From: a virus
Taxonomy: Duplodnaviria > Caudoviricetes
Reading direction: 5' to 3' (one strand)
Length of the DNA stretch: 38,922 nt
IMG/VR virus record: IMGVR_UViG_3300011971_000003
Coordinates: 1 to 38,922 of that record
In this document: in pieces, positions 5,325 through 27,778 of the stretch
Layout of the letters: each line of letters starts with the position of its first letter
Position numbering within the stretch: the stretch's first letter is position 1
The notes under the pieces: generated by a model
What the model saw: the letters and a program-made list of their open reading frames with translations, nothing else
Database searches by the model: none
What the model was told of the DNA's origin: nothing
Position numbers and translations under genes: made by a program

Positions 5325-5342
5325 ATATGTTATGATGAAATG

Positions 5343-5672: not shown

Positions 5673-5685
5673 GTTATGCCCCTCT

Positions 5686-7038: not shown

Positions 7039-7058
7039 ATGTTTACCCCCTTATTCAC

Positions 7059-8608: not shown

Positions 8609-8619
8609 TTGTTTATCTC

Positions 8620-8811: not shown

Positions 8812-8831
8812 GGCTTGTCCCTCCTATCGAT

Positions 8832-9518
8832 CTATAAATAGAATTTTTCTAATTCCTCAGGACTTGTTTTAGTTATCTGCTTAGGTCTGTTCCTAACTGC
8901 CTTTGCTAATAATGCTCTGATGTTGTTTGACCGCTCGTTTATATCCTCAACTAAATCTGTTTCATCTTCTTCAAAGTGTTCAATCATTCTAGGTGTGATC
9001 CGCTCAGCAATCGCTTTGACTGGTGTTCCACCCATTGCCGCAATTACTTCTTTCAACCTCTGAGGTGTTCTTGCATCCGTGGATTCCCTTTTTTCAAGTG
9101 CTTCATAAGCCATGCGAAATTGTCCTCTGATTACGTCAGGTTCTTCGCTTAAGCAAAGCCCCTTCCACCCTATGGACTCCGCTGCTTTCCTTGTTAATGG
9201 TGGTAGACTTTGCAGAGCTTCTGTCTCTCTGTAACTCCCGAAGTATCGTATTGCCTTTAATACATCTGCATAAGCGTCAGGAGCCGCCTGGATAACTTGT
9301 CCTGTCACTTGTAGGGCTGCTCCCCTAAATACTGCTGGCATTGGTAAGAAGGGGTTTTCTAGGGTTGCTATTACTTTTCGAGCTGCGGTGATTGCTACTT
9401 CATAAGGAAGGTCGTTCAGGGCATCCCAGTACACTTCCATTCTTTGTGGGGAAGGTTTTGTATCAGTGGTAATTGACGTAATGTATGAATAAAATTTAGC
9501 AAACTCAGGCTTGTCCAT
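8832..9518 (-). CDS. Helicase loader/inhibitor (SPP1 G39P-like)
   Basis: Follows the replication initiator; W..L.DL.YE...FLPMPA...IGWKGLC...RGQF pattern. Confidence 0.7.
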   Translation of the reverse strand: MDKPEFAKFYSYITSITTDTKPSPQRMEVYWDALNDLPYEVAITAARKVIATLENPFLPMPAVFRGAALQVTGQVIQAAPDAYADVLKAIRYFGSYRETEALQSLPPLTRKAAESIGWKGLCLSEEPDVIRGQFRMAYEALEKRESTDARTPQRLKEVIAAMGGTPVKAIAERITPRMIEHFEEDETDLVEDINERSNNIRALLAKAVRNRPKQITKTSPEELEKFYL

Positions 9519-10410
9519 TATCTACCTCCTCGTGCATTGCTAACCATTGGGCCGTTACATCATCTTGTACGGATGTTCCGGTTTGTTTCCATCTTGATTC
9601 AGGCTTGTCAGCTCGTTTTACGGATTTCATTTTCATGGTGAGTTGGTCGAATTTTTCCCTGAGTGTGCTAGTTGATAAGATGTTACCCATCCAAAAACTG
9701 TCCTGTTGACACCACCTGATAACCTCCTGGATCTCAACGGCTCCCCTGTTATCCCTGCGTATCATTAAGTCGATTGACTTTGCCCATGCTTGCAGATTAG
9801 GTTTCTTGGCGTTAGGGTTGTTTAAAAGGATTAGATTATAAAGTTCACAAGCGAGGGAAAGTTCAATTGCATCGTCGGAAAACTTGTTTTTCGATAAAGA
9901 AGGTTTTATATCTTTATCTATATCTAATTTTCTATCTAACTCTATCTCTAGGAGTGGATTTTCAACGGACTTCTCTTGGACTGTCCTTGGACTGTCCTTG
10001 GACACATCCCCAATTAGTGATAGTTTTTTATTAGCCCTCTCTATGCGTTTGCGATCCCTGTCTCTTTCCTTTAACTTCTCCATACCTTCAATGTTCTGGT
10101 GCTTTCCCCAATTGGTTATGAGGATTATGTTTTCGTCATATTCGATCATTCCAAGTCTCTGGAATGTTTCAAGTGCTAACTTAATTATGGTTATCGGTTT
10201 CCTGAACTTATGAGAGAGCATATCTTCTGTGTAAGGTATTCTCTCCGTTAGGTAGATGTATCCGCCAGCGTTGCACTTCCCAGCTAGAGATAAGAGTCTA
10301 ATCCATATCACTATGATTGCATCAGCTTCGGGAAGACTCGTTATGAAGTCGATCTTTTCATCATCAAACATGTCCGTTGTGATCTTGATCCACTTAACAT
10401 CAGATGCCAT
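9505..10410 (-). CDS. Phage replisome organizer (lytic replication initiator)
   Basis: VKWIKITTDMFDDEKI N-terminal domain; DSFWMGNILS..LREKFDQL C-terminus. Confidence 0.9.
   Translation of the reverse strand: MASDVKWIKITTDMFDDEKIDFITSLPEADAIIVIWIRLLSLAGKCNAGGYIYLTERIPYTEDMLSHKFRKPITIIKLALETFQRLGMIEYDENIILITNWGKHQNIEGMEKLKERDRDRKRIERANKKLSLIGDVSKDSPRTVQEKSVENPLLEIELDRKLDIDKDIKPSLSKNKFSDDAIELSLACELYNLILLNNPNAKKPNLQAWAKSIDLMIRRDNRGAVEIQEVIRWCQQDSFWMGNILSTSTLREKFDQLTMKMKSVKRADKPESRWKQTGTSVQDDVTAQWLAMHEEVDNGQA
9967..10010. repeat. Four 11-bp iterons (putative lytic origin)
   Basis: GGACTTCTCTT GGACTGTCCTT GGACTGTCCTT GGACACATCCC inside the initiator gene. Confidence 0.7.
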
Positions 10411-10423
10411 TCTTTCTCCTTTT

Positions 10424-11047
10424 CTATTGGTTAGCTTTGTAAAATGCTTGAGCGAATCCCTGGGGGGTTATACTGCGCCTGACTTGCCGCTTGTCTAATC
10501 CGCATCCTTTGTTATAGATAAATCCTTCTGGAAGTTCTGGAAGATCAGAATTAACTATGCGGTCGAATTTTCGTTTCGTGCATTCAATTGGTTTCTTAAC
10601 AGGCACAGTGAAATTTCCCCATATTTGAGTTCGTTTTCTGAGGTCGTCACCATATTCGTGTGGACTAAATTCCAATGCAGGATTACCTAAGAACTTTTGA
10701 AGGAATCCTCTTGGATTTTCTAATGCCCAAAATTTAAGAGTGGTTTTTTGTGCTGTTTTATACGGTAGCTTATATTGCTGTTGCCATATTATTTCGAGAC
10801 ATCTCTTAACGAGTTTCATTGCTTCTTCAAGATCTCTTTCTTCTTTCGCGCTCATCCTAGCAAATGAAAATTGTGTGCAAGTTGGAGCTGCGAGTATGCC
10901 GTATACCCCACTTGGAGGTTCATAGGAGAATAGGTCATGCTCTGGAAGGGTTATTAGCCTAACGTCATATCCTGCATCCTTATACGGCTTGCTCCAACTT
11001 GCTGTCCCTCCGCACAAATCAAGTACGACTTTATCGCTGTTATCCAT
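10424..11047 (-). CDS. Short C5-cytosine DNA methyltransferase-like protein
   Basis: VLDLCGG, AAPTCTQFS, ALENP, RKRT motifs. Confidence 0.75.
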   Translation of the reverse strand: MDNSDKVVLDLCGGTASWSKPYKDAGYDVRLITLPEHDLFSYEPPSGVYGILAAPTCTQFSFARMSAKEERDLEEAMKLVKRCLEIIWQQQYKLPYKTAQKTTLKFWALENPRGFLQKFLGNPALEFSPHEYGDDLRKRTQIWGNFTVPVKKPIECTKRKFDRIVNSDLPELPEGFIYNKGCGLDKRQVRRSITPQGFAQAFYKANQ

Positions 11048-11186
11048 TCTCTTGCCCTAGTGCTGCTACTTTCTTCGCCCAAAACCTTTCCATGATGGCC
11101 TTCTGCTTGTCCGGGTTCTTCTTTCTCCACTCTCTGTAGTAAGCCGGGTCCCTTGGTTTCTTATCTATAGCTGTGTTAGTAGCCAT
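11040..11186 (-). CDS. 48-aa basic phage protein
   Basis: GGAGG RBS; MATNTAIDKKPRDPAYYREWRKKNPDKQKAIMERFWAKK. Confidence 0.7.
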   Translation of the reverse strand: MATNTAIDKKPRDPAYYREWRKKNPDKQKAIMERFWAKKVAALGQENG

Positions 11187-11608
11187 CTTTGCATCCTCCA
11201 AAATTCTTTTACATTTTTTGTGTTGTGCATATTGACTAACTTACACAAGTGTTGTAATATAAACACAAGCAAAGCAAACAGACACCTTGCACAACAAGCT
11301 GATTTTTGTTTTTGCCCGGCCACTTCAATGGTCAAGCGTTCTTTGCGGAACATATTACTTAGGGCTTAGGCTCGATCGGCGTTCTCTCAGTTCCTCAATT
11401 ATTACCAGTAATTGAAGGTCTGTGAGTGCGCCAAATCCTTATTTTTCATTACGATTCATCTACCAGCTCCCTTCTATGATCGGGGCTTATTTCCTATGCT
11501 TTATTATATCACAATATGGGCAATATGTACATATAACACAACATATAATATATGAACAATTTGACCACAACATGCCTGTCTGATACAATCTATTTAGGAG
11601 TGATGAAA

Positions 11609-11791
11609 ATGTCTAGAGAAAATCCAGAAGAGAATTTTAAACGATTTCCAGCATTGCTGCGGCCTTCGCAGTTTGTGGAGATTGATCGTTATCGCCAGGA
11701 TACTGGGACATTGCCGAATACGGCAGAAGCGATCCGTGACCTAGTTGATCTTGGTTTAAAAGCATATTGGGAGGGGAAGAGCCGGGAGTGA
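11609..11791 (+). CDS. Ribbon-helix-helix-like regulator (moron)
   Basis: KRFPALL...EIDRYR...TAEAIRDLVDLGL; own promoter TTGACC-N17-TACAAT and terminator. Confidence 0.7.
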   Translation: MSRENPEENFKRFPALLRPSQFVEIDRYRQDTGTLPNTAEAIRDLVDLGLKAYWEGKSRE

Positions 11792-12130
11792 CCGGCTCTT
11801 TTTTATTCTATTTTGTTCTATTTTGTTGTACGCGCAATCAATACACACATTATCTTCCCTCACCCTATCCTCGTGGTAGTAAACTTCATCATCAACTATC
11901 GACATGATAACTTCACATTTCCGCACGAATAGGGGGTCACTGAGGATGTACGTCACTCTCCTTTCAACCTCTTCGCCTGTGTATGAACCATCGTGTTTCC
12001 AATATTACCGAAGCACTAATATGTCCCCAACTTTGAAATCTCTGTCATTTACACGCACCTCAAATGTCTTGTTTCCAGATTTTACGGCCTCGAAGTATTC
12101 GGCCCATGTTTTGAGAAAGTGCTTTGACAT
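11756..12130 (-). pseudogene. DUF3850/ASCH-like gene with in-frame TAA
   Basis: MSKHFLKTWAEYFEAVKSGNKTFEVR...GDILVLR*YWKHDGSYTG; stop at 12005-12007. Confidence 0.8.
11778..11806 (+). terminator. Intrinsic terminator
   Basis: AGAGCCGG-gagtga-CCGGCTCT then TTTTT. Confidence 0.8.
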
Positions 12131-12337
12131 AAACACAACTCCTTTTCGTTTTATCCCAATGGCTGGAAGGGAGAGCAACGCGTTTCACCCTTCCAAGGTC
12201 CGTCCATTTACCCTAAATCCGAATTGTCCACCTTTATTTCATCTATCCTGGTCTATTATTGATACCCTCGCATAAGATAGTATGATTGTGATTTTTAAGT
12301 GAAAGTGTTTAAAATGAGGGTCCGAAGCCCAGTGTTG

Positions 12338-12508
12338 TTATTCCGGTTCCCAATAACACATTTCTGACTCCATTTCTTCAATGAGATCATCAATAGTTAC
12401 AATTGGTTCATCTTGCCCTGAAAATGCTTCAAATTCAGCCTTTAGTATTCCGTTAGCCTTATTATAAATCTCAATTAGTTCAAATAATCGCATAAGTCTT
12501 TCATTCAT
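12338..12508 (-). CDS. 56-aa acidic hypothetical protein
   Basis: GGAG RBS; MNERLMRLFELIEIY...CYWEPE. Confidence 0.65.
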   Translation of the reverse strand: MNERLMRLFELIEIYNKANGILKAEFEAFSGQDEPIVTIDDLIEEMESEMCYWEPE

Positions 12509-12522
12509 GTTCCCCACTCCTT

Positions 12523-12675
12523 CTATTTAACTAATTTACTAGCGAAGTTCTTTAGCTGCCCCCCTGATAAATTAGCTCTGCACCAAGTAACATTGTTTGG
12601 TGCATTAACTATCTTCTGTTGTATGCGCTGCTTCTCTTGATAGCGAAGGCGGCGCGTGTTGTCGTTGTTTGGCAT
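12523..12675 (-). CDS. 50-aa hypothetical protein
   Basis: AGGAG RBS; MPNNDNTRRLRY... Confidence 0.55.
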   Translation of the reverse strand: MPNNDNTRRLRYQEKQRIQQKIVNAPNNVTWCRANLSGGQLKNFASKLVK

Positions 12676-12686
12676 TGTGTCAACTC

Positions 12687-13217
12687 CTAACTAATACAGG
12701 ACACTTGTTTTTCAAATAGCTCCATTTGTACAAATATGGGTATCCTATACGGTTTGGGGTAGATTCTTCGCGTATCTACATGGCAGGAATTACATAACCA
12801 TTGAACATTTAATGGCTTACTGTAATCCTCATGATGTCCTTCTAGTTTTGTTTTTTGACCACATTTAGAGCATCTAATAGGCTTTATTACTAACCCATCC
12901 CTTACTGCATTACCAAGGGCTGTTTGAGCGTGGTATTTTTCTGGATACTTATTTCTATATCTTCTTTGCGACTCTGCCTGTCTACCATCCTCTACCCATG
13001 TTTGTGTAACTTTTTTCCTAAGGGCAATACGTTGAGGATAGTTAGCTCGTTTTCTATCATACGCTTGGCAGTATTCTAGATTATCAGAACGATGTTTGCT
13101 GGCATCTTCCTTGGTACACTCTTTGCATTTATTAAGGTGTCCGTCACCCATTGTTGAGTGACGGTAAAATTCATCAATCTTTTTAGCTGCTCCACATTTG
13201 AAGCATTTTTTCATCAA
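12687..13217 (-). CDS. HNH-like Zn-finger protein
   Basis: CFKC...CKEC; CSKCG...[19 protein letters not shown]. Confidence 0.8.
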
Positions 13218-13609
13218 AAAGGTATGTCCGAATCTAGGTTAACCTCATGCCCTAAAGAGGATCCTATTGCGTTGTTGTGATCCTGTGGTTCTCCCTTGGG
13301 ACTTAAGAATTGTACATTTTCCCCAATGATTTCAGTGATATACACCTTTTGATTATCCTTGTTGGTGTAATTTCTCGTTTGTATCCGACCATCTACGGCG
13401 CACATACGGCCTTTATCCAAATAATTTGCGCATAGCTCAGCAAGCTGTTTATATACCAAAACGGGTAGGAAGTCGCATTCCTTCTCCCCTTGTGCGTTCT
13501 TGAATGTCCGGTCAACTGCTAGAGTAAAGTTGGTTACAGCAACACCCTGTGGCGTATAACGTAATTCTGGTGATTTCGTTAATCTCCCGATAAGAATAGA
13601 TTTATTCAT
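13214..13609 (-). CDS. ssb: Single-stranded DNA-binding protein
   Basis: [19 protein letters not shown]...DIPF. Confidence 0.97.
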
Positions 13610-13612
13610 TGA

Positions 13613-14272
13613 TTATCTTCCTCCTTGTTGTTGTGGTACTTTTCGGCAATCCATGCAGGTTGGTGGGTTTATTCCTTGTTGCTGGCAATACTTAACTACT
13701 CCTGGTCCTATGGGTTTACCGCATGTGCATTTACTTCCTACGTCACTTTGATTCCCTGTTGATCCAAATGGTAAGACGTTGGGCTGCGTGACACCCTGTG
13801 GACGCTGTGTGGTCTGTGGTGGGGTGTCCGTTCTACCGTTGTTGTACTTGGTGTTGTCTGCTTGCCAGTAGATATCTGCCGCGAATCCAAGAGCCTTACA
13901 GCTAACTGATATTGCATCTGTCAGGGCCATCTTAAAGCATTCATCAGAGGTATAAAGTCCACTTGATTCTTTAGCTACGAACGAGCTCCCTCCGGTCCCG
14001 GGTATAGCGTCCGACCATGCCCCCTCGACTTTGATAAATAAGTCAATATTGACGAAGGCCGCTATTTCTTCCTTGCCACCAGTTTCCAGCCATTGCTTTG
14101 TTATGACGTATTTCCAGCCAATTCCGCACATTCCGAATTGCTCCGTGAGGGACTTTAGCCTCCACATGGGATTAATGTCAGATTTTCCCTTAAGTCTGCC
14201 ACCTAGGATTGGCTTAATGGCTTCTGGTGGTGGCTGGCGTACTGCGTTGTAGACGGTTAGGTTATCGATCAT
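13613..14272 (-). CDS. Single-strand annealing recombinase (Rad52/Sak-like)
   Basis: INPMWR..LTEQFG.CGIGW...FKMALTDAI...LGFAADIY; lies between gam and ssb. Confidence 0.75.
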   Translation of the reverse strand: MIDNLTVYNAVRQPPPEAIKPILGGRLKGKSDINPMWRLKSLTEQFGMCGIGWKYVITKQWLETGGKEEIAAFVNIDLFIKVEGAWSDAIPGTGGSSFVAKESSGLYTSDECFKMALTDAISVSCKALGFAADIYWQADNTKYNNGRTDTPPQTTQRPQGVTQPNVLPFGSTGNQSDVGSKCTCGKPIGPGVVKYCQQQGINPPTCMDCRKVPQQQGGR

Positions 14273-14421
14273 CTGAAATTCTCCCTATCTTCAAATTCCG
14301 TGCATTCAATAATATTATCGTTTCCGACTCCGTCTCCATATTCGACGTTTTGTGGTCTTGCTGCGCATGTTGGTATTTCAAATATGCAAGTGTCGCATAG
14401 GTTAATTTTTGTATCTTCCAT
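14269..14421 (-). CDS. 50-aa Cys-containing hypothetical protein
   Basis: GGAGG RBS; MEDTKINLCDTC... Confidence 0.65.
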   Translation of the reverse strand: MEDTKINLCDTCIFEIPTCAARPQNVEYGDGVGNDNIIECTEFEDRENFR

Positions 14422-14425
14422 TTAC

Positions 14426-14971
14426 TCACGCCTCCAATTTTATTGACAACTTCGGTTCACGTTCAGACACAATAACTCCGGGAACTAGCTCTCCTGTGTT
14501 CCCATTGATCAACCTACCATTCTTAAGGGTGTAGTAATCCTTGATAAGATCTTTTATGGGTTCCATTTTGACCTTCAAGAGAGCTGTCTTTCTCTCCCCC
14601 TCTAAGTAAGCAACTAGCACTTCATCGTCATACTCCCATTGATCTTTCTGCTTATGGAAGTTGACTTTGCCATAAGGAGTTTTGTTGCCCTTCCACTTGG
14701 GGTCCTCCGCTATCTGCGCTTTGGCGTACTGTCCGATAATTCCCTCAAAGTATTGCCTAGTTGATTGATAAGATGAGTCTTGCTTTTCATACCACTTCGC
14801 TATGCGGTCAATCTCAGCATTGCAGAGAGCTAAGTCCTCACTGTGTGATTTCTCGAGCGTCGATAGTTTGCGTAAAGCCCAGTTAAGGGAAGATAGGTCT
14901 GTTATTTGGAAACGCTGTTCGACAAGGACCTCTTTTAGTTCTTCGGTTTCGATAGTGTCTAGCCAGTTCAT
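14426..14971 (-). CDS. gam: Mu Gam-like host-nuclease inhibitor
   Basis: FQITDLSSLNWALRKL...KTPYGKVNF...VPGV. Confidence 0.85.
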   Translation of the reverse strand: MNWLDTIETEELKEVLVEQRFQITDLSSLNWALRKLSTLEKSHSEDLALCNAEIDRIAKWYEKQDSSYQSTRQYFEGIIGQYAKAQIAEDPKWKGNKTPYGKVNFHKQKDQWEYDDEVLVAYLEGERKTALLKVKMEPIKDLIKDYYTLKNGRLINGNTGELVPGVIVSEREPKLSIKLEA

Positions 14972-15306
14972 GCCGTTTCCTCCTTATCTTCAAATCTATA
15001 TTTAGTTAATGGACGGTCTGTTTCACATCCACCAGGGCAATGACTCTCATGTTTGCAATTAGGGCAATCATCATCTATCTCAGTCTGGAAAGTGTCTACT
15101 CGTGGGTCCTTAGTCCCTCCGCATGATCCGAATATACATTCATCACAAGTAACTTCCCCAGCAAACTCATATTCGCAATCGTATTCCGTACTCTCTCCGT
15201 TAAAGCTAGAGTAACCCTTGCATTCAGTATTTTTATCAAGTATTCCGAGACTCAATTTATCTTCGTAATCGTGATCTGTTTCCTCATCCCAATCATTTAT
15301 ACTCAT
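14968..15306 (-). CDS. Cys-rich acidic hypothetical protein
   Basis: 112 aa, coupled ORF. Confidence 0.65.
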   Translation of the reverse strand: MSINDWDEETDHDYEDKLSLGILDKNTECKGYSSFNGESTEYDCEYEFAGEVTCDECIFGSCGGTKDPRVDTFQTEIDDDCPNCKHESHCPGGCETDRPLTKYRFEDKEETA

Positions 15307-15497
15307 CGTATATATCCTCCACTGTAGCGTTCTCCTAATTCCTCGCGTGACTCATGATACTCAAAATAATCCTCATTCCTTGTGCGCCTATCCTGTGGCC
15401 TTACAACTCGTTTTATGTCCTCGAATGGTTGTTGCTGAATGAAGTGTTGCGCTAGGATGTTGTCGAATAATGGATGCACTTTTTTAACGTCAATCAT
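15303..15497 (-). CDS. Hypothetical protein
   Basis: 64 aa, coupled ORF. Confidence 0.6.
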   Translation of the reverse strand: MIDVKKVHPLFDNILAQHFIQQQPFEDIKRVVRPQDRRTRNEDYFEYHESREELGERYSGGYIR

Positions 15498-15503
15498 TTG
15501 TCA

Positions 15504-15659
15504 CTACCCTCCAATCTGGTAGATAACTTCACAATCATCCGTGTCTTCAATATCTTCGACCTCTTCGACTTCTGTTATCATTCCACTTTCGTCAACCCAA
15601 ACGATTGCTACGCCAGTAAACGTCCCCTTAACCTTTGCCTTTATCTTTTTAAAACTCAT
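15504..15659 (-). CDS. 51-aa hypothetical protein
   Basis: MSFKKIKAKVKGTF...; ATGA overlap with upstream gene. Confidence 0.6.
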   Translation of the reverse strand: MSFKKIKAKVKGTFTGVAIVWVDESGMITEVEEVEDIEDTDDCEVIYQIGG

Positions 15660-15865
15660 GCTACTTCCCCCAATTTCTCCACTGATGTCCTAACCGCTTT
15701 AACCCTAACTAACGAGCCATGTTCCCGAGCATAACGATTCTCCGCTGCCCTCTCAACCATTGCCTTGTTGGCATTACGTGTGATTCTCTCAATCACTGGG
15801 TAGATGGTGAATTCTAGGCCAGCCTGCTTTAGTGTGACTTGGAGGATGATTGTGTATTTACGCAT
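15656..15865 (-). CDS. Hypothetical protein
   Basis: AGGAGG RBS before MRKYTIIL. Confidence 0.6.
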   Translation of the reverse strand: MRKYTIILQVTLKQAGLEFTIYPVIERITRNANKAMVERAAENRYAREHGSLVRVKAVRTSVEKLGEVA

Positions 15866-16187
15866 GGTGTCCCTCCTGTCGAATGATTTCTTCGGGTTCC
15901 CAAGTCGGTATGATTGCACCTTCCAAATCATCAATGGTTATGGTAGAATCAGGTTGTATAATTTCCTTTGGGCCCTCTGTATCAGCAGGGGGTTTCTCTG
16001 CGTTCCAAGGTAGTGATTCGTCAAACCAAACGGCGTAATAGGCGTCCACAACTTCCTCGATTTCTTCCATTCTTTTTAGATTTCCATGTTCCTTAATGAT
16101 TGCTCCGATTGTTCCCATGGCTGAATGGGTTAGTGACCTTCTCCCTTGGCCTATGGCAATGACTGTCATTTGCTCCATAGCTGTCAT
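15858..16187 (-). CDS. Hypothetical protein
   Basis: 109 aa with RBS. Confidence 0.65.
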   Translation of the reverse strand: MTAMEQMTVIAIGQGRRSLTHSAMGTIGAIIKEHGNLKRMEEIEEVVDAYYAVWFDESLPWNAEKPPADTEGPKEIIQPDSTITIDDLEGAIIPTWEPEEIIRQEGHHA

Positions 16188-16206
16188 CGTTAAACCCCCT
16201 TAATAT

Positions 16207-16590
16207 TCACCAGTCTTCCTTTTCATCAAGTAAGCCAATTTTATACAGAATTTCTGCTTCATCGTGCTTTACATATTTACCACCGCATGTATTCACCGAG
16301 CTTCCTAGTGGAGTTCCGGGTTTATACCACCCGTTGTCAAATTCATCTTGGGTAATTTTAGCCCCATCAGGCACCATAAATTTTTCGTTACCTCCAGTTT
16401 TCATCATGTTGTCGTAATGCTCAAACTCTACTTTTCTGTCATACCCCAGTTTGTCATAAGATCCAATTTCGCTTGCTCCGCAATTGTCACAGTAATAAGG
16501 TCCGCACTGTACATGTCCTACCCCAACATCAACCCAATCGGCCTCACATTCTGCTTTGCAATAAGGACAATTCTGCTTTTCGAAACTCAT
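16207..16590 (-). CDS. Zn-ribbon hypothetical protein
   Basis: CPYC...VDVGVG..QCGPYYCDNC. Confidence 0.75.
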   Translation of the reverse strand: MSFEKQNCPYCKAECEADWVDVGVGHVQCGPYYCDNCGASEIGSYDKLGYDRKVEFEHYDNMMKTGGNEKFMVPDGAKITQDEFDNGWYKPGTPLGSSVNTCGGKYVKHDEAEILYKIGLLDEKEDW

Positions 16591-16602
16591 TTACTATTCC
16601 TC

Positions 16603-16797
16603 CTAATCTTTCTTGAACAGATAGTCCAGGTCAATACCTAATGCCTCCGCTACCTTAGTTATGGCCTTAATACTTCCTACTGAATCTGTTTCCATTTCGC
16701 TGATCGTGTTGTGCTTCAATCCGGAACGTTCTCCCAATTCCCTCTGACTCCATCCCTTAAGGGTTCGATATTTCCTAACTTGTTTACCCATTGTCAT
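16603..16797 (-). CDS. Cro-like XRE HTH regulator
   Basis: GWSQRELGERSGL...ISEME; first gene of the leftward early operon. Confidence 0.9.
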   Translation of the reverse strand: MTMGKQVRKYRTLKGWSQRELGERSGLKHNTISEMETDSVGSIKAITKVAEALGIDLDYLFKKD

Positions 16798-16813
16798 CGT
16801 CTGCTCCCCTTTC

Positions 16814-16980
16814 TTCGTTTTTAACGAATATTCATGATAAAAAAATATCCATTTTCTTGCTCGGACTCTTAATGTGTGTGATTAACTATCTCTATTATAC
16901 TTCGCCATTTCCGAAATAGCAAGCTTTATTTTAATATGTTTCGTTATCGTTAAGGAGGATTTTGATTCGATAATAACGTA
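16814..16980. promoter_or_regulatory. Genetic switch: three TTCG-N7-CG(A/T)A operators and the early promoter
   Basis: Operators at 16814-16828, 16901-16915 and 16966-16980; minus-strand TTGCTA-N17-TATAAT (16922-16894) contains operator 2. Confidence 0.7.
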
Positions 16981-17019
16981 TACTATACGAATGGAAATAA
17001 TTTATTGAGGGGGTGCGAA

Positions 17020-17415
17020 ATGAACTACGGACAAAAAATAAGATTTGTGATGGAGAAAGTTAGGGGAGGTATGACATTAACGGAACTCCATAAAGCCACA
17101 GGTCTGTCTCTAAGCTATCTTAGTGAGGCAATAAATGGCAAGACCAATATGAGCATAAAGGCCCTAGAGAAGGTGGCTACCGCACTTAATGTTAGCTCAT
17201 CCTACCTATTGGATGAAAACGCCGTTACATTTAAAGAGGTTCTTGACGCTTCTAATTATGAACCCCCAGCCGATATAATAGACTTTCTTTCCAAGCAGGA
17301 CCAACTACCCTACATCATCCTCGCCAAGAAGATGTCAGACGAAGGAATCACCCCAGAGACGTGGGAGACAATATTTAACAATATCAAAAATATGATGGCA
17401 GCATTAGGCAAATAA
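17020..17415 (+). CDS. CI-like XRE repressor without S24 peptidase domain
   Basis: N-terminal HTH (MTLTELHKATGLSLSYLSEAING); divergent from cro. Confidence 0.9.
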   Translation: MNYGQKIRFVMEKVRGGMTLTELHKATGLSLSYLSEAINGKTNMSIKALEKVATALNVSSSYLLDENAVTFKEVLDASNYEPPADIIDFLSKQDQLPYIILAKKMSDEGITPETWETIFNNIKNMMAALGK

Positions 17416-17523
17416 ATTATATACCCTATAAAATAAAGTTATTTATTATAATTTTGTCATATATAGTCGAAAATAAACTCTTCTAGACATGATGTAATAA
17501 TGATATGATTATAGCCATAAAAG

Positions 17524-17535
17524 GAACTAGTGTTC
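17524..17535. promoter_or_regulatory. LexA/DinR (Cheo) SOS box
   Basis: GAAC-TAGT-GTTC matches the Firmicute consensus GAAC-N4-GTTC. Confidence 0.7.
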
Positions 17536-17557
17536 TATATGTAGCAAATTTAAGGAG

Positions 17558-17776
17558 ATGCAGCGAATGGAGATTATATCTTGTAAGCTGGATGGCATCA
17601 AATGGGCTATAGTTGGCGGTAAGGTGTTGGTGGACCCAAGATATATCAATGAGTATGTAATGTCTCTTAAGGAGGAAAAGGTTAGCTGTAAAACTAGGGC
17701 ATGTTTATTGGCGAAGGCTGCTGTATGCGTGTATTGTATTGGGGTTGCTATACATATTTTTGTTATGAGTGGATAG
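17558..17776 (+). CDS. Putative SOS-controlled small protein (candidate antirepressor)
   Basis: AAGGAG RBS; Cheo box upstream; C-terminal hydrophobic segment. Confidence 0.6.
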   Translation: MQRMEIISCKLDGIKWAIVGGKVLVDPRYINEYVMSLKEEKVSCKTRACLLAKAAVCVYCIGVAIHIFVMSG

Positions 17777-17860
17777 TATTAATTTTTGCAAAGTATTCCA
17801 TATTGGGTTATTTTGCGATAAAATAGAATATAACAGCTAATTAATAAGAAAAAGACATAG

Positions 17861-17940
17861 CAAAAACCTCCTGAAAGCGCTTGTTTGGTCGCGAACACTT
17901 TCAAGAGGCCCTATCGAGGAGTTATTTAATTTACTTATTT
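17861..17940 (-). ncRNA. Predicted antisense (counter-transcribed) replication-control RNA
   Basis: Promoter TAGACG-N17-TATACT (17974-17946); terminator hairpin 17867-17908 followed by TTTTT on the minus strand. Confidence 0.65.
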
Positions 17941-18017
17941 CCATAAGTATAACAAAAATAATCTCTCTCGTCTAGCATTGCTATCGTCAAAAATGTTAGA
18001 AAGAGGGATTTATTTTT

Positions 18018-18503
18018 ATGGACATACTAAAAGTTGTTGGTATTGATTCAATGGGATATGGAAAGATCCCAAAGATGGTTATGCAGGACCGAAGGTTAAC
18101 ACCAGAAGCTAAGTGCATTTACTCTTATTTTGCTAGTTATGCCGGATCTGGTAACAGCGCTTTCCCCAGTGTTGTTAAGATACTCTATGATCTTTGTATG
18201 GGACGCGCTCGTTACTATAAGCACTTTACATTACTGATCGACTACGGATACATAGAAGTAGAACAAGCCAAAGAGTCGGGAAAGTTCAGCCATAACGTCT
18301 ATATACTAAACTGCCAAATATCAGACAAAAAACCGTGTACCCAAAATCGGACTACGGTAAATGAGACTACGGAAAATCGTACCACTAATACTAACAATCT
18401 TAAAAAGAACAGTATTAATAAAAGAAAATATAAAAAAGAAAAAAAGGCAACAACTTCCGGGGATCCAAGTAAAAAGGGGAAATACGACTCATTCTATTTA
18501 TAA
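18018..18503 (+). CDS. HTH-domain replication initiator (plasmid-type Rep)
   Basis: YGKIPK.VMQD..LTPEAKCIYSY..SYAG....AFPS winged-HTH; intragenic repeats. Confidence 0.75.
   Translation: MDILKVVGIDSMGYGKIPKMVMQDRRLTPEAKCIYSYFASYAGSGNSAFPSVVKILYDLCMGRARYYKHFTLLIDYGYIEVEQAKESGKFSHNVYILNCQISDKKPCTQNRTTVNETTENRTTNTNNLKKNSINKRKYKKEKKATTSGDPSKKGKYDSFYL
18342..18386 (+). repeat. Three 15-bp iteron-like repeats followed by an A-rich tract (putative second origin)
   Basis: CAAAATCGGACTACG GTAAATGAGACTACG GAAAATCGTACCACT. Confidence 0.65.
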
Positions 18504-18516
18504 GGGGTGAATAGCC

Positions 18517-18972
18517 ATGTACGTAACACTCAAAGCATGTGCCGATAAAGCAGGAATAAATATCAGCTCGGCTCGATTTTACAAGGATAAGTTTCTCCAA
18601 TACTTCGCTACATCTGGGGAAGGCCGCAACACAAAGTACGACGAAGAATCAACTGTAGAAATACTAGCATTGATTAGCAAATTATATAAGCAGAACATGG
18701 ACGAAGCGCAGATAATTGAGGAATTAGAGAATAGGTATGGAATACCCACTGTTGGGCATTTGGTCCAACAAGAGAAAGACAACAACTCCGAGACAACACA
18801 ACAAGAGCTTATAAATGCAGTTACAGAGGTATTTAGGGGAGAAATATCTAGGTTGGAGGATAAGATAGATGAGCTTGCACAGGGAAGTAAGTCGAGGGAT
18901 GAGTTGCTTATGGAGACCCTTGTTGCTATTAGGGAGAGGGATAGAAAGAAGAGTTGGAAGTGGTGGAAATAG
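18517..18972 (+). CDS. MerR-type HTH/coiled-coil protein (DUF3967/pSK1 Par/TubY-like), candidate partition protein
   Basis: N-terminal HTH, coiled coil, RDELLME motif, KKSWKWWK tail. Confidence 0.7.
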   Translation: MYVTLKACADKAGINISSARFYKDKFLQYFATSGEGRNTKYDEESTVEILALISKLYKQNMDEAQIIEELENRYGIPTVGHLVQQEKDNNSETTQQELINAVTEVFRGEISRLEDKIDELAQGSKSRDELLMETLVAIRERDRKKSWKWWK

Positions 18973-18997
18973 AAAAGAGAGCCGTTAAGCTCTCTTA
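18973..18997. terminator. Terminator between convergent operons
   Basis: AAGAGAGC-cgttaa-GCTCTCTT. Confidence 0.65.
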
Positions 18998-18998
18998 A

Positions 18999-19163
18999 TT
19001 AATTATCTAACCTTTCATATGCGGTATCAATGAATCCAAATACCCATTCTGTAAATACTTCTTGTATTTCTTCTTCTGTTGTATCATTATCAAATTCAAC
19101 TATTTCCTCACTTGGGTTTACGTTTCCACTTTGTGGACTATAGAAAAATCTATACTTCTTCAC
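18999..19163 (-). CDS. 54-aa acidic protein
   Basis: AAGGAGGT RBS; GTG start; EEIVEFDNDTTEEEIQEVFTEWVF. Confidence 0.7.
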   Translation of the reverse strand: MKKYRFFYSPQSGNVNPSEEIVEFDNDTTEEEIQEVFTEWVFGFIDTAYERLDN

Positions 19164-19340
19164 TTATTCCACCTCCTTAATATCCTCAATAGTAATCCTA
19201 ATCTTTTTAACCTTAAACTCCGACATTAAATCATCCATAGTTTGGTTAGGAAACATACCAATTTGTGCATCTTCTTTTGTTTTAAAGATTCCCAGATCGT
19301 CATAGCTTCCCCCTAAGTAACCCTCTATTACCTTTTTCAC
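19164..19340 (-). CDS. 58-aa hypothetical protein
   Basis: GTG start; MKKVIEGYLGG...KKIRITIEDI. Confidence 0.65.
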   Translation of the reverse strand: MKKVIEGYLGGSYDDLGIFKTKEDAQIGMFPNQTMDDLMSEFKVKKIRITIEDIKEVE

Positions 19341-19528
19341 TATTCCCCATCCTTATATATCCTTGGCTCATATTCAAAACTGCCAATTCCTTCATTAACT
19401 TCTTCTAGCATTAGCAAGCAATCAAGGCTTTTATGGATAAATAATTCTGGCGAATCATCGTTAAACTGAATAATTAAAACTTTATCTCCCTCGAGTATGG
19501 GGATTAAACACCCCTCGCAGTTAATCAC
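19340..19528 (-). CDS. CxxC protein ending YEPRIYKDGE
   Basis: ORF track; shared 3' repeat. Confidence 0.7.
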   Translation of the reverse strand: MINCEGCLIPILEGDKVLIIQFNDDSPELFIHKSLDCLLMLEEVNEGIGSFEYEPRIYKDGE

Positions 19529-19546
19529 TTGTTCATCTTCTCCTAT

Positions 19547-19762
19547 CTATTCAACTACTTTTAGTTCGTCTTTCATTTCGGAAAAGTTAAAGTAATCCTT
19601 TACGTGCCCTATTGTGTAAATTCTTCCGCAGTTATAACAGTTTAGAGATATAGGCCATCCATACCCGGAACCCTCCCCTTTTGCTGTATCCCAATCGCAT
19701 CCAGTAAAACCAACGGTTAGCTTTAGGCTTGAGTTGCATGAGGGACATTTTAGTTTATCCAT
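19547..19762 (-). CDS. Zn-ribbon hypothetical protein
   Basis: CPSC...CYNC. Confidence 0.7.
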   Translation of the reverse strand: MDKLKCPSCNSSLKLTVGFTGCDWDTAKGEGSGYGWPISLNCYNCGRIYTIGHVKDYFNFSEMKDELKVVE

Positions 19763-19768
19763 TAGCTA

Positions 19769-20011
19769 TTACCCCCATGACATAATTACTGTACCATCCG
19801 GAAGAAATGGTTTACCACGTAATAAATACGTTACTTTTTTACTGAGTTCGTGACCTGTGTAAATCTTATTGATAGGATCAAATCTTTGGAGAGTTAGCGT
19901 ATCTCCAACCGAAAACACTCGATCGTCTTCCTTCCTAAACTCGAATGTCTTCTCACCAGAATCCACAGCGTCATAAAATTCAGGCCATGTTTTTAAAAAA
20001 TGTTCGGTCAT
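19769..20011 (-). CDS. DUF3850/ASCH-like protein (intact copy)
   Basis: MTEHFLKTWPEFYDAVDSGEKTFEFR...VGDTL. Confidence 0.85.
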   Translation of the reverse strand: MTEHFLKTWPEFYDAVDSGEKTFEFRKEDDRVFSVGDTLTLQRFDPINKIYTGHELSKKVTYLLRGKPFLPDGTVIMSWG

Positions 20012-20015: not shown

Positions 20016-20393
20016 TTATTCCCCCTCCTTATATATCCTTGGCTCATATGGATAGCTGGATAAAACGGCGCAATCATGGCAGACAATGTTATTATCTAGT
20101 GGGACGAAATAGACTATCTGCACGCCTTCTTCAAATGGATCGAATGGATCTCCGCATACCCGGCAATGGGTGGAGTAGATGCGCTTTAGGGTTATGGTGT
20201 CAGATTTTTCGCGTTCATTATCCAAGTCCTTGTATTTGGCGTACGTAGCATTTCTGTACCTAATATATAATTCATCATCTTCTGTCATTTCCTTGTTGCA
20301 ATCGTTTTCGCATGTAATTTTCTTAGATTTCCTAGCCATTAGCTCTTCTTTAGTAATCCCGTTATACTCATTTGTAAATTCATAGCTCATCAT
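20016..20393 (-). CDS. CxxC protein ending YEPRIYKEGE
   Basis: ORF track; shared 3' repeat. Confidence 0.7.
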   Translation of the reverse strand: MMSYEFTNEYNGITKEELMARKSKKITCENDCNKEMTEDDELYIRYRNATYAKYKDLDNEREKSDTITLKRIYSTHCRVCGDPFDPFEEGVQIVYFVPLDNNIVCHDCAVLSSYPYEPRIYKEGE

Positions 20394-20557
20394 TTCTCCC
20401 CCTCCTTCTGTATCCTTGGTTCATAGAATTCGTTCTCTTCATTATAAAAAGAGCAGCCATTACAATTTCCTGGTATCGAACAAGAAGAGCACATAATTTG
20501 TTGTAGTCGTCTTGCAAATCTCGGATCTTTCTTTTTTGATGGAACAGTATCGCTCAT
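20390..20557 (-). CDS. 55-aa CxxC protein ending YEPRIQKEGEK
   Basis: AAGGAGGT RBS; ATGA coupling at both ends. Confidence 0.65.
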   Translation of the reverse strand: MSDTVPSKKKDPRFARRLQQIMCSSCSIPGNCNGCSFYNEENEFYEPRIQKEGEK

Positions 20558-20712
20558 CTATCCACCTCCTTTTGTATCTCCCTTAAAGCTAATGATCTCA
20601 AAAATGTACTAGCTGGCATACCGCGTTTTCTTGCAAACTCTTTTATTATTGCTTCTTCTTTTTTGTCTAGGAAATAGACTTTGATGTGCGAGCGATAGGT
20701 TTTTTCTACCAT
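20554..20712 (-). CDS. 52-aa ribbon-helix-helix regulator
   Basis: HIKVYF...EEAIIKEFARKRGMPASTFLRSLAL. Confidence 0.7.
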   Translation of the reverse strand: MVEKTYRSHIKVYFLDKKEEAIIKEFARKRGMPASTFLRSLALREIQKEVDR

Positions 20713-23749: not shown

Positions 23750-26700
23750 CTATTTTAATTTAAACTTATCGTTAGCCGCCTTAGCAATCTCCAACATGCG
23801 TATTTGCAAAGTTTTTATCTGTGCATCTTTTTCCTCACTTGTCAATGTCCCTGCCTGTACCTTGTCGATTTGTTTGCGAATATCACCAAGTTTAGTGCTA
23901 GTTTTATTAAACATAGTTTTATAATTATGCCCTAGTTCTAAACCCTTATCCCCTGTTGCCTTGGCATCACTAGCACTCGTTGAAATCTTATCTAAGGTAT
24001 TATAGAAATCTCCTATAATGTCATTAGAGAAGGTTGGGTCCGCTGTTACTTGTTTCTTGAGTGTGCCACCAATACTTGCATTTTTAGTAGTGGCAGGAAT
24101 ACCGAGTTGAGCAACACCACCCAGGTAACTACGGGCTAGATAGTCAATTTGCTGTGGAGATTGGTTTAATTTATTTCCTATCCACTTTGCTGGCTCACTT
24201 GTTTTTTCGTCAAACTGATATTTTGGAGATAGTTTGGATACTGCACTAGAAACTACGGGAGCGTCTAGGAAGTTCTTGTTTGAGCGAATATCACTTAATG
24301 GAGCAAGAATTGATCTTGTTGGGGGGGTGAAATTTGTCTTTACTGTTTCCATAAATCGATTAAAGGCATCCGGGTCACTATCTTGCCATTGTCTAAGGGA
24401 TCGCTCGACAGAACTCCCGAACATAACTCCTATTTCTCTAGGCTTTGGTATTTTGATAAAGGTTCCGTCTGCTTTGGGGAATAGAAAGTTATTGTCTTTG
24501 ATATAATCACTAAGCTGTTGATATGCAGGGTTATTGTGGTTGAGTTGGTATAATACGATAGTTGGGAATGTAACTGCCGCTACAGCCTTTATTGGTGCCT
24601 GTACGGGGTTATCTTTGAATGTTCTGGCTAGCTTATCTATCCCTTGCCATGCTGCGTTTAGGTAAGGAAAAACAGCATCAGCATCTTTTATGACATTACC
24701 GGATCTACTAAAGTTCGTTGTTACATCGTTTGCTTCATACAGGCCCTTAATCTTCGCGTCATAGGTCCCGGGCTTAGAAACTCTTTTGAACTCTGCCAAA
24801 CGTGGTGCAGACTCTACCACATTATTAAATCTCTCTAGTGTTCCGATTCCAGTATCAAACATTTTCTTGGATGATCTTAAGGGATGCGTTACAAGCTCCT
24901 TCGCTGTTTGTAGCGGATGCTTCGCACTTAACGTACTAGGAAGTAGCCTTGCCTTACTCTCCGCTAACGTGTTCCTACTTGCAGATACAGAACTTGAAGC
25001 ATACCCACCACCCATTGCCTTATATGATTTATATACTTCCTTGTTTCCCATAATATCAACGATTGAACCAAGTAAGTCCTTACCAAATACAAGGGGGTTA
25101 TTTGTACTTTTCGAGTTAATAAATGCTGTGGGAATATCGCGCCATATGTTGCGGGCTAATCCAAATACAGGGTTAATTCCTGTTGTAAGGTTCTTCATGA
25201 CCCTCGTCACGCTGCCAAGTGCCGCTATAACATTCTTTTGCGCTTGTGGCTTAAGGTTCGTTAGTGCATCTAATAATAAAGGATCGTTAACCCGTACGTG
25301 TACCTTTTCTCCATTAACCAAGCCGGTAACTACATTGCCAAGGTCAAGTCGTTGCTTCTTTGCGCTGAATACATCGTCAAACTGTTTATTAAACGCTTCA
25401 ACTACTCCGTCTATACCTTGTGTTTCGAGGGTTTTGTTTATGTCCTCTAACATACCCTCTTTAAGTTGACTATCCGATGGTATAACTTCGGCCCAACCCT
25501 TAAACTCTTCTGGATTCTTCTCTATGTTTCTGATAAGGGACTGCATGACCTCATTGCGCCTAGCTACCTTAACATACTGCTCAGTGTGTTCCATGATAGT
25601 CTCTATTGGGCTTATGATCTTTCTCTGTGAACCTGTTCGTGCCTTAACCGGGTTTGATTGTCCAGCAAACCCTCTTTTTGCAGGTAAGCCAAACCCCGGC
25701 TTTTCTAATTCACTAAAGAAACGATTATTGGGGACATAATTAGGATTATCAATTACCCATTTACCGTATTCCTCTGGTGAAACTATGCCAGTGTCTACTA
25801 ACCACGACTTCGTTAATTTGTTCTGAAAGTCATAGAGTTTATTGGAGAGGTCCTTAAACTCAGGGTGAGCTGCTTCAATTTCCTTAACCTTGGCCTCTGA
25901 TATTTCAGGAGTCATTGCCATTTCGTCGGGATATACCTTTTCTCCCGCCTTCATACGAGTAATAGCGTGTTTGTTGACGAGATAATCATCAAAGGATTGC
26001 ATGTCCTTTGAATTCTTTAATTGATTTGTTATTGTTTTGAGTGAATCTCCAATCTTTACGCCTTCTGGATTGACAAGTTCTTGCTCTAAGATATGACTTG
26101 ACGTTGAGCCTGTCCCCCTGCTATTCAATCCCAGCATATACGTTTTGTCCTGGGGAGCAAGTTTAGAACCGGTTACTTTTTCAACATACTGGTCTAATTG
26201 ATTAAAACGATGAAGATTATCGGTCGTTTTAATGTAAGCGTTAGTCCTCAGGGTTTCAAGGTTAGTAGGTTGTCTCTCTGTCTTTGATACAATATGGCTA
26301 GCTGTGTCTGGGAGAGTGGCGGGAAGTTCATTACTAAACCGTTGAAGACTCATAGGAATTCTAGGTTCTATCACAGGTTGGCCGAATCCTAAGTTTTGTA
26401 GGTTATTAGTTGTTCCTTGAATTTGCGCAGGTTGCCTACCTGGCAATTGATCCAAGTTATCAGGCGTAATAGACCGAATAGGTAACGGTCCCGATTGGCC
26501 TAAGTTATCTTTATTTGTCCATTGTAGAGGCTGTGGTTTTTCGGGTGGAGATCCTCTGAAGTTAGGGTCTAAGATTTGTTGTGGTGTTTTAGGCAAAATA
26601 GTAGTTGGTTCAAACTTGGTTATCTGACCAGTTTTACCACTTGGAGAAACATTACCATTCGGATCTAACATTATTAATACTTGGTGCGGGTCCTTGCCTG

Positions 26701-27778
26701 TCCTTTGCCCTCCTGTGTGGGTATAAGCATCATATCCGGTTTGTTTTAAATCAGATGTCATATTGTCGAAGTAGTCGTGAAACTCGGATATAGGTATTTG
26801 GTCCTGATGGGACATGGTGCTTATTTCATCGGATAATTTAAGCCAAACCTTTTCTCCAGTAGCGCCTTCAGAATGAAGTTTATTTATAGATTGAACCAAT
26901 TCGGGGTTATCATAATTTTGTGATATCTGGTTAGCAGTTTTACTGATTACATTAAAGGCATCATCTGGCAATGTTTTTTGAAGATCAAGAACATTTTTTA
27001 CATCGACATTGGCATTATAAATAGTCGGAGTATTAGTTTTTTTACTTCTAGATTCTGCATATCCATTAGCTATTTCAGGATTATCAGTTAGATATACTCC
27101 TTGCCCAAATAGACCATCAATTTTTGTCATATTGGTGTTGAGTGCTTCCGGGGTTAACCCTTGTGTGCCTGTGCCATGATACCATTGTTTTTTATTTATA
27201 GCCTGTGGGTTGTCCGTATATGTTGGTCTGCCAAAAGCACTCTGAGTATCAGCCTGTTTTTGTTGGAGTAATTCAGATGGGTCCATGCCTTGCTTTGATA
27301 ATGTCCGTCCTGTCTGTCCTAAGTTATTTGTGCTATCAGAAAACGTATTGTTGAGTTGTTGTTCTGTTGCTGTTCTCAGTGATACAGGGTTATTATATGC
27401 CCCTTGAAGATCCGCTAAAGGATTTGTGCTTATCTCTGGAAGTTGTGTTGCTTTATTGAATCTAGCATAGTCAACTCCCGATTTTACACCATTTCCCAAT
27501 AACTGCCCTGCTCCATGAAGCGCTGTCCCACCCAATGCCATCAGAGGAACTTGTTTTTCTCTCTGTATTAAGCCCTGTAGTCCATCACCTTGAAGTGCGG
27601 TTTCCATAGGAGCAATACCTAACCCATATGTTGCCCCTGCCCTTGCCCCTGTTCCTAATGCTGGTGTAATTGCCTTAGGAAGAAAGCTTAATCCTTTTGC
27701 TACTGGTGCAGTTTTAGCAAGCATCCCTAACGGTTTTGCGACCAGAGCATCACCCAGCCATCCACAAGCCTGCATCAC
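23750..27778 (-). CDS. Large polyvalent ejection-type protein (ART domain, LPD38-like C-terminus); main part of a frameshifted gene starting at 28163
   Basis: WYHGT/GVYLTD/GYD ART motifs; VTTNFSRSG, FPYLNA..QG, IKIPKPRE LPD38-like motifs. Confidence 0.8.
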   Translation of the reverse strand: MMQACGWLGDALVAKPLGMLAKTAPVAKGLSFLPKAITPALGTGARAGATYGLGIAPMETALQGDGLQGLIQREKQVPLMALGGTALHGAGQLLGNGVKSGVDYARFNKATQLPEISTNPLADLQGAYNNPVSLRTATEQQLNNTFSDSTNNLGQTGRTLSKQGMDPSELLQQKQADTQSAFGRPTYTDNPQAINKKQWYHGTGTQGLTPEALNTNMTKIDGLFGQGVYLTDNPEIANGYAESRSKKTNTPTIYNANVDVKNVLDLQKTLPDDAFNVISKTANQISQNYDNPELVQSINKLHSEGATGEKVWLKLSDEISTMSHQDQIPISEFHDYFDNMTSDLKQTGYDAYTHTGGQRTGKDPHQVLIMLDPNGNVSPSGKTGQITKFEPTTILPKTPQQILDPNFRGSPPEKPQPLQWTNKDNLGQSGPLPIRSITPDNLDQLPGRQPAQIQGTTNNLQNLGFGQPVIEPRIPMSLQRFSNELPATLPDTASHIVSKTERQPTNLETLRTNAYIKTTDNLHRFNQLDQYVEKVTGSKLAPQDKTYMLGLNSRGTGSTSSHILEQELVNPEGVKIGDSLKTITNQLKNSKDMQSFDDYLVNKHAITRMKAGEKVYPDEMAMTPEISEAKVKEIEAAHPEFKDLSNKLYDFQNKLTKSWLVDTGIVSPEEYGKWVIDNPNYVPNNRFFSELEKPGFGLPAKRGFAGQSNPVKARTGSQRKIISPIETIMEHTEQYVKVARRNEVMQSLIRNIEKNPEEFKGWAEVIPSDSQLKEGMLEDINKTLETQGIDGVVEAFNKQFDDVFSAKKQRLDLGNVVTGLVNGEKVHVRVNDPLLLDALTNLKPQAQKNVIAALGSVTRVMKNLTTGINPVFGLARNIWRDIPTAFINSKSTNNPLVFGKDLLGSIVDIMGNKEVYKSYKAMGGGYASSSVSASRNTLAESKARLLPSTLSAKHPLQTAKELVTHPLRSSKKMFDTGIGTLERFNNVVESAPRLAEFKRVSKPGTYDAKIKGLYEANDVTTNFSRSGNVIKDADAVFPYLNAAWQGIDKLARTFKDNPVQAPIKAVAAVTFPTIVLYQLNHNNPAYQQLSDYIKDNNFLFPKADGTFIKIPKPREIGVMFGSSVERSLRQWQDSDPDAFNRFMETVKTNFTPPTRSILAPLSDIRSNKNFLDAPVVSSAVSKLSPKYQFDEKTSEPAKWIGNKLNQSPQQIDYLARSYLGGVAQLGIPATTKNASIGGTLKKQVTADPTFSNDIIGDFYNTLDKISTSASDAKATGDKGLELGHNYKTMFNKTSTKLGDIRKQIDKVQAGTLTSEEKDAQIKTLQIRMLEIAKAANDKFKLK

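Follow-up and report, generated by a model that had tools for sequence, protein, structure and literature searches.

In pSK1 Par of Staphylococcus aureus and RocS of Streptococcus pneumoniae, a MerR-type winged helix-turn-helix (wHTH) is combined with a coiled coil, a DUF536 segment and an amphipathic helix, and the available sections of the source treat motor-free DNA segregation by one DNA-binding protein as an open question for both (PMC11500499). In the same sections, RacA of Bacillus subtilis is described as anchoring the chromosome via DivIVA during sporulation (PMC11500499). TubY is a component of the type III partition systems of pBc10987 and phage c-st (PMC7762940, accessible part), and the tails of TubY and RocS bind membranes only once the proteins have oligomerised, as far as the accessible parts of both sources describe it (PMC7762940; PMC11500499). 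An anatomy of stem-loop IV and pre-emptor has been described for pT181, and likewise for pIP501 (PMC5703833, in the part available). For confirmed plasmid prophages of Bacillus, the accessible text of PMC11526630 names only ParM-type systems. Phage-plasmid screens look for rep and partition genes through profiles already known (PMC7969092, in excerpt), and phages with a repressor but without an integrase or partition NTPase may therefore be missed.

We analysed a stretch of 38,922 nucleotides from a virus of the Caudoviricetes (IMG/VR record IMGVR_UViG_3300011971_000003), hereafter called the window. With good confidence, our results point to an integrase-free temperate podophage whose lysogens would carry it as a plasmid under antisense copy control. 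That a stand-alone partition protein acts here by membrane tethering is an evenly balanced proposition, drawn by analogy with known proteins. As a whole, we slightly favour the reading of a low-copy circular plasmid prophage with an antisense-controlled second replicon and a single tethering protein for its inheritance. Plasmid lysogeny had already been proposed in the initial annotation. It is now well supported by comparison, because Rep has homologs in EF62phi and in a tested replicon, the attenuator in front of rep is conserved, the Rep slot is swappable and four near-complete relatives are free of recombinases, while the plasmid state itself is read from sequence. Each part of this arrangement has precedent, and the combination seems not to have been met in the literature. 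In the openly accessible literature, we found no report of a prophage joined with a stand-alone protein of the Par/RocS type. The features discussed below are collected in Table 1.

Table 1. Features of the window and of related loci (coordinates without a prefix refer to the window).
Feature	Coordinates	Strand	Basis or remark
Separate initiator of lytic replication, with 11-bp repeats of its own (19/22 matches)	9505..10410	-	PF09681, E 8e-45
cro-like HTH repressor, head of the lytic early operon	16603..16797	-	HTH_3, E 3e-12; position kept in relatives
cI-like repressor, likely start 17020	17005..17415	+	HTH_3, E 2e-9
72-aa ORF between cI and rep, VxVDP motif, hydrophobic C-terminus	17558..17776	+	no family match
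Predicted antisense (countertranscript) RNA, ~80 nt: single-stranded 5' tail, then terminator hairpin and U-run	17860..17939	-	fold, covariation
Predicted pre-emptor (anti-terminator) GAGGAG	17916..17921	+	complementary to terminator 5' arm; covered by antisense RNA tail
Sigma-A-type promoter of the antisense RNA, leftward, TAGACG-17-TATACT with TG	17946..17974	-	sequence match
Terminator-like hairpin containing the rep RBS (18002-18008), then T-run to ATG	17962..18017	+	-21.2 kcal/mol
Winged-helix replication initiator (Rep), 161 aa, PCP63/EF62phi type, ending KYxxFYL	18018..18503	+	HTH_36, E 2e-9
Imperfect 15-bp tandem repeats inside rep, three copies, predicted iterons	18328..18382	+	21/30 matches
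A+T-rich tract, predicted unwinding element	18383..18445	+	84% A+T vs 58% genome-wide
Par-like protein, 151 aa: MerR-type wHTH 1-75, flexible linker, coiled coil 93-142, tail KKSWKWWK; family associated with DUF3967	18517..18972	+	
Terminator-like hairpin, two-way, at the end of the rep-par unit	18975..18996	.	
DnaA-box/22-bp-repeat origins	L004:9846-9982; L007:9849-9981; L009:9238-9371		

The earlier view that the genome is circularly complete agrees with three observations. After trimming of one base per end, the termini overlap exactly over 98 nt, which gives a circle of 38,822 bp. The portal gene, of P22/SU10 type, is a 700-codon open frame across the join, and the join is also spanned by a contig of soil run X1 (possibly the source sample). 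Depth in this run was 635-942 over the 20 kb examined, and no high-depth host junction was found among the contigs listed for its reads against window positions 1-20000. No RNA dataset was among those listed as containing the window. The IMG/VR class 'linear' and the CheckV completeness of 66% are both contrary to a circular reading; we infer that they reflect the 60-68-kb relatives. Matches to Pfam and PHROGs comprised terminase, portal, capsid, holin, amidase and cro/cI, with a weak match to the SU10 adaptor, which amounts to a complete temperate set. Tape-measure and tail-tube proteins had no match among the window ORFs in these collections, so that a podophage fits. No named relative came close in searches with cI, capsid, amidase and terminase, which placed the host no finer than Bacillota. 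Many window ORFs were without a family match in Pfam and PHROGs.

The cI/cro switch was confirmed, since both genes match HTH_3. Homologs of cI in four relatives (L004, L006, L009, L011) are 41-51% identical, and ORFs similar to the small ORF behind cI occur in L004 and L006. In L003, the position of this ORF is taken by a protein with a HELYH motif, presumably ImmA-like. Recombinase, transposase, protelomerase, ParA, ParM and tubulin families were absent from the 82 ORFs in Pfam and PHROGs searches. Six-frame searches of the window for PF00589, PF07508 and PF01656 came back empty, with positive controls in 14/14, 2/14 and 14/14 genomes, respectively, and TubZ (PF00091) had no match in the window. 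The sole Walker-A-like string in frames of at least 140 codons lies within 13613-14272, which has an exonuclease-family PHROG match. The reported lack of a tyrosine or serine recombinase, ParA, ParM and TubZ is thus borne out by profile scans of all ORFs and by six-frame searches.

Presence of a separate lytic initiator implies that the rep gene on the cI side belongs to a second replicon. Its product has 106 matches among 72,556 plasmids, the best of them to 28-35-kb elements of E. faecalis, an element of P. sordellii and plasmids of C. perfringens. The E. faecalis elements (of a type named EF62phi in the phage collection) and the P. sordellii element have been deposited as circular plasmids and are tailed phages. 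Beside rep, a ParA-like ATPase is found in the EF62phi-type elements and ParM in the P. sordellii phage-plasmid. Identity is 53-55% with the EF62phi-type proteins (residues 2-97) and 48% with the C. perfringens plasmid proteins (residues 2-106). In the C. perfringens plasmid, rep, parA, parB and PCP03 measure 906, 753, 1278 and 363 bp, sizes that match the PCP63-parA-parB-PCP03 region, and a 2.3-kb fragment with a PCP63 homolog replicates, according to the part of PMC4459074 that is accessible.

The N-terminal domain of Rep is homologous to that of the EF62phi-type elements and the pCP13/pBCNF5603 replicon. The EF62phi-type elements resemble our phage also in their tailed-phage nature, in the closeness of rep to the repressor and in having a separate set of genes for lytic replication. 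However, the EF62phi/pCP13 type uses ParA or ParM, its Reps are ~300 aa long and its repeats precede rep. In the window phage, which has no NTPase of this kind, Rep measures 161 aa, the repeats lie within rep and the leader resembles an attenuator. A truncation artefact was considered and rejected, since forms of 157-171 aa with an identical-type KYxxFYL tail recur. The family of Rep alone is not diagnostic, because the lytic initiators of integrating staphylococcal phages have the same HTH_36-type HTH. The HTH_36 match, the repeats and the A+T tract uphold the earlier description of a second HTH initiator with 15-bp iterons and an A-rich tract. The iterons are real but modest evidence when taken alone, as one other genome position, and only one, equals their score. 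Period-15 repeats also occur in L006 and L011, and a period of 22 with DnaA boxes in L004, L007 and L009. Near the window rep, DnaA boxes were not found.

Upstream of rep lies a conserved structured leader (17860-18017) that is new compared to the initial annotation, whose 'two-gene' module thus undercounts the components. The predicted anatomy of this leader is that of an antisense attenuator of the pT181/pIP501 type, a hallmark of plasmid copy-number control: an antisense promoter within the rep leader, a terminator containing the RBS, and a pre-emptor upstream of it. Unlike pT181 and pIP501, the leader has no Rfam sequence match, and its place is behind cI in a phage, where it fronts three unrelated Rep types. 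Rfam gave no relevant match at E<=10 for window positions 16500-19500, and nothing relevant at the gathering level in L003, L004 and L006. The hairpin at 17867-17908 is assigned to the minus strand, as terminator of the antisense RNA, because an A-run precedes it. The fold of the predicted 80-nt RNA has a z of -3.75, with none of 200 shuffles as good.

The stability of the RBS hairpin was reached by 0/200 shuffles in the window and by 0-4/200 in all seven relatives tested. When the RBS arm was forced open in constrained folds, the 5' arm of the terminator paired with the purine-rich segment just beyond the first hairpin. This pre-emptor duplex was matched by one of 300 shuffles in the window. 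Over 10 loci, pairing with the own partner gave -9.3 kcal/mol versus -7.4 kcal/mol for permuted partners, with the own partner ranking best in one locus. The antisense promoter is at chance level in the window alone (87/300 shuffles); 10-11 of 12 positions match at the equivalent place in five of nine relatives. Covariation across the 10 loci showed 88.5% of cells paired and 9 of 15 pairs changed on both sides, a score reached by none of 500 shuffles (a control inflated by sequence kinship), and slid controls paired at 33-60%. A combined attenuator test, with thresholds set after the positives were seen and control starts chosen automatically, was passed by seven of the 10 par-like loci. It was passed by 0/13 ParA, ParM or other plasmid-type loci, by 0/63 other Rep loci (those with Rep frames of at least 200 codons) and by 0/36 other window genes.

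A search with the par-like gene yielded nine viral and 11 metagenome loci, on partly shared contigs, and the Rep alignment added two more loci with par. Where the flank was available, gene order was cro, cI, small ORF, leader, rep and par, with the exceptions of an HNH gene inserted in L064 and L011, and of other genes between the repressor pair and rep in L065. The HNH-type genes (L064:10510-11322, named by eye, and L011:5603-6322) lie in the rep-par gap or the cI-leader gap. Three types of Rep occupy the same slot, all under the same leader. The first is found in the window, L064 and L065, and the second, with 27-33% identity to the window Rep, in L003, L006 and L011. The third (L004, L007, L009) is lambda-O-like, without BLAST similarity. 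This lambda-O-like initiator has 128-129 aa and no C-terminal domain, and its gene is followed by a DnaA box, three 22-bp repeats, an A+T tract and another DnaA box, both boxes being perfect. L017 has the cro/cI/par layout without a rep ORF; instead, it contains a non-coding stretch of ~600 nt in which long inverted repeats occur (8970-9620) and a sub-threshold Rfam match to ctRNA_pGA1 at the antisense position (8971-9046, minus strand, E 5e-4). Its par is frameshifted, and intact in a cluster member. Possibly, judging from these sequence features, L017 has a Rep-less, RNA-primed origin.

Whole-record profile searches covered 49 records of 91 viral loci, namely the nine with a par-like gene and 40 for comparison. 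PF00589, PF00239, PF17989 and PF13614 were absent from all nine par-like records, four of which are 90-100% complete. In contrast, 37 of the 40 comparison records carried a recombinase or an actin-like ATPase, and three carried neither. None of the par-like records was classed as provirus. These relatives are kin, mostly from similar or few datasets, and hence the nine records are not nine independent tests. TubZ was absent from all five relatives searched, and the ORFs of at least 140 aa in G001, G002 and part of G003 included no recombinase or partition family. The par-like protein had no match among 50,697 cultured-phage records, and GTDB representatives yielded no close relative of par when screened with patterns of its close homologs. 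In three 60-68-kb relatives, an FtsK/SpoIIIE gene and an M23 peptidase gene directly follow par (L035:10180-12747, L031:13972-16542, L029:3589-6483), with a Replic_Relax-type gene matched in two of the three; the window is without these genes, and the FtsK could be a segregation aid. On a 6.8-kb contig of Anaerophilus nitritogenes (L048), which may be a small plasmid, an HTH_36 rep precedes the gene of a tailed MerR protein and an integrase-like gene.

The par gene follows rep at a distance of 13 nt, and both share a terminator. In pSK1, likewise, the Par gene adjoins rep. The initial annotation had recognised a MerR-HTH/coiled-coil protein ending in KKSWKWWK. The predicted model (89 sequences, pLDDT 88.5, pTM 0.54) agrees, in that a disordered linker (80-88) separates a wHTH from a helix at 93-150, although the MerR_1 match itself is weak (E 0.0016, below the cut-off). 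The DNA-binding domain of RacA aligns with this model at a Z of 8.5 and an rmsd of 2.5 over 67 residues, and metal-sensing MerR regulators match it structurally just as well (Z 9.6, tied). The family profile hits the TubY tetramer domain (7C7Y) via an RD..LM motif at E 0.003, a weak and coiled-coil-biased match; the single homolog P0042 gave no match to this domain. The pSK1 Par structure was not among the structural matches listed, an absence that carries no weight against kinship. DUF536 was not matched in the window protein, and in at most one of 89 family members. DUF3967 (PF13152) was matched in seven of 89 aligned homologs and four of seven plasmid homologs, not in the window protein, and is carried by 12-83% of the members in Atlas neighbours. 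The basic-aromatic tail is present in 97 of 123 full-length homologs compared to 20 of 156 control ORFs; its hydrophobic moment is 0.54-0.70, and it is shorter than the usual amphipathic membrane-targeting helix. No cysteine effector site was seen beyond C8.

In its three-part architecture, the terminal basic-aromatic tail and the lack of an NTPase partner, the protein resembles pSK1 Par and RocS. It differs from them in that DUF536 is almost missing from its family, centromere repeats were not found in 10 loci, and its gene lies on a temperate phage, co-oriented behind rep. With TubY it shares a MerR HTH, a coiled coil with the RD..LM motif and a tail that may be amphipathic, and with RacA the wHTH fold and a coiled coil, tethering of DNA being RacA's function. 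The architecture that had been taken as common to pSK1 Par, TubY and RacA thus holds for wHTH and coiled coil, with the tail as a candidate membrane-targeting helix, but DUF536 went undetected in the window protein, the pSK1 Par structure was not among the matches listed and the TubY link is weak. TubY itself is no precedent for a single-protein system, since it acts with TubZ and TubR.

All eight PLSDB matches are plasmids of 5-12.5 kb from genera of Bacillales that we take to be spore-formers. The features of seven of them (three in part, and the feature table incomplete) included no partition NTPase. One of these homologs is on a 5-kb MobV plasmid, which is likely high-copy. The family profile matches 22 of 401 sampled Bacillota genomes, and 11 of these homologs, without the tail, adjoin genes that we presume to be aroE/aroC-like. 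Tailed homologs among chromosomal housekeeping genes occur in three Bacillota loci (L146, L149, L150), possibly as RocS-like chromosome tethers.

Across 10 loci, no conserved centromere-like array was seen near par, and apart from the motifs of leader and RBS, the loci had no non-coding 9-mer in common. The par linker contains an ACAAC-rich stretch that appeared conserved, and ACAACRCAACA occurs nine times at up to one mismatch, compared to 1.8 expected. This candidate centromere was rejected and the repeats are read as codon content, because eight of the nine copies share the strand of their neighbouring genes and, in the plasmid homologs, conservation is limited to the QQ residues.

How such a plasmid prophage might be maintained can be outlined in four steps. 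Repressor cI would silence the lytic operon together with the lytic initiator, and a rightward transcript would cover rep and par. The 80-nt antisense RNA would pair with the leader and block the pre-emptor, so that the RBS-containing terminator forms; a higher copy number would then lower the output of Rep, as in pT181 and pIP501. Rep would bind the 15-bp repeats within its own gene, open the A+T tract and recruit host helicase loaders, perhaps via its conserved KYxxFYL tail. We consider these first three steps quite probable. In the fourth, the Par-like protein would bind phage DNA by its MerR wHTH and oligomerise by its coiled coil, and several tails would insert into the membrane, as for TubY and RocS, while growth or entropy would passively move the sister copies apart. 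Given the preceding steps, this last one is somewhat favoured.

The fourth step is where other explanations enter. The MerR/coiled-coil protein of a plasmid prophage might mainly be a transcription regulator or modulator of copy number, and inheritance might depend on the antisense RNA holding the copy number at a moderate level. The fold is tied with those of MerR regulators, no centromere was found in 10 loci, homologs occur on small plasmids and chromosomes, and TubY itself activates tubRZ and binds the promoter region (PMC7762940, accessible part). Yet, retention of the tail in most homologs, the lack of an effector cysteine site beyond C8 and the position of par in the slot that ParA or ParM occupies in relatives of the window Rep argue against a mere regulator, and we regard this explanation as rather unlikely. 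Alternatively, the tether might mainly be a sporulation device that, in the manner of RacA, fixes the phage genome to the membrane at the pole or septum and so brings the plasmid prophage into the forespore. This would suit the RacA-like wHTH, the presumed spore-forming genera of all eight plasmid matches and the homolog on a small plasmid that should need no vegetative partition. However, par is apparently co-transcribed with rep, as the 13-nt gap and shared terminator suggest, and such a specialised function appears improbable.

A third possibility is that there is no stable plasmid, either because host recombinases or an unrecognised enzyme integrate the phage, or because the rep on the cI side serves transient early or carrier-state replication only. 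The many ORFs without a family match leave space for this, the Rep HTH is also used in lytic initiators, three of the 40 comparison records likewise lack both recombinase and ParM, and L017 combines a missing rep with a broken par. Against it stand the absence of a recombinase from the window and four near-complete relatives, the lack of any provirus among the nine par-like records, and the attenuator and DnaA-box origins, which are plasmid features. We therefore consider it quite unlikely, and retain the plasmid prophage with a tethering protein as the preferred reading.

A wider reading is more tentative. The relatives may form a clade of Bacillota podophages with a plasmid cassette in which the initiator is swapped freely (three Rep types and the Rep-less L017) and the attenuator and tether protein stay fixed. 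The DUF3967/MerR protein might then be a second TubY-related, NTPase-free partition lineage, sufficient on its own for genomes of 39-68 kb, and perhaps also for their passage into spores. If true, this would explain why small plasmids of Bacillus and chromosomes of clostridia carry the same protein family, and DUF3967 would gain a function. The locus provides a 151-aa candidate in a self-contained 1.2-kb replicon with natural variants, which makes the membrane-tether model directly testable.

Several other features of the window deserve mention. A 1342-aa LPD38 polyvalent protein (23750-27778), with a weak ART-PolyVal match (E 2e-4, below the cut-off), is likely ejected. Small ribbon-helix-helix-like ORFs lie at 11552-11791 (+) and 20554-20712 (-), the latter with weak RelB/NikA-like matches, and no toxin partner was recognised for either. 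A 42-nt repeat that encodes 'EPRIYKEGE' and an RBS occurs three times at gene ends (19341-19382, 20017-20058, 20394-20435). It is found in L003 too, and its copies are possibly points of cassette exchange.
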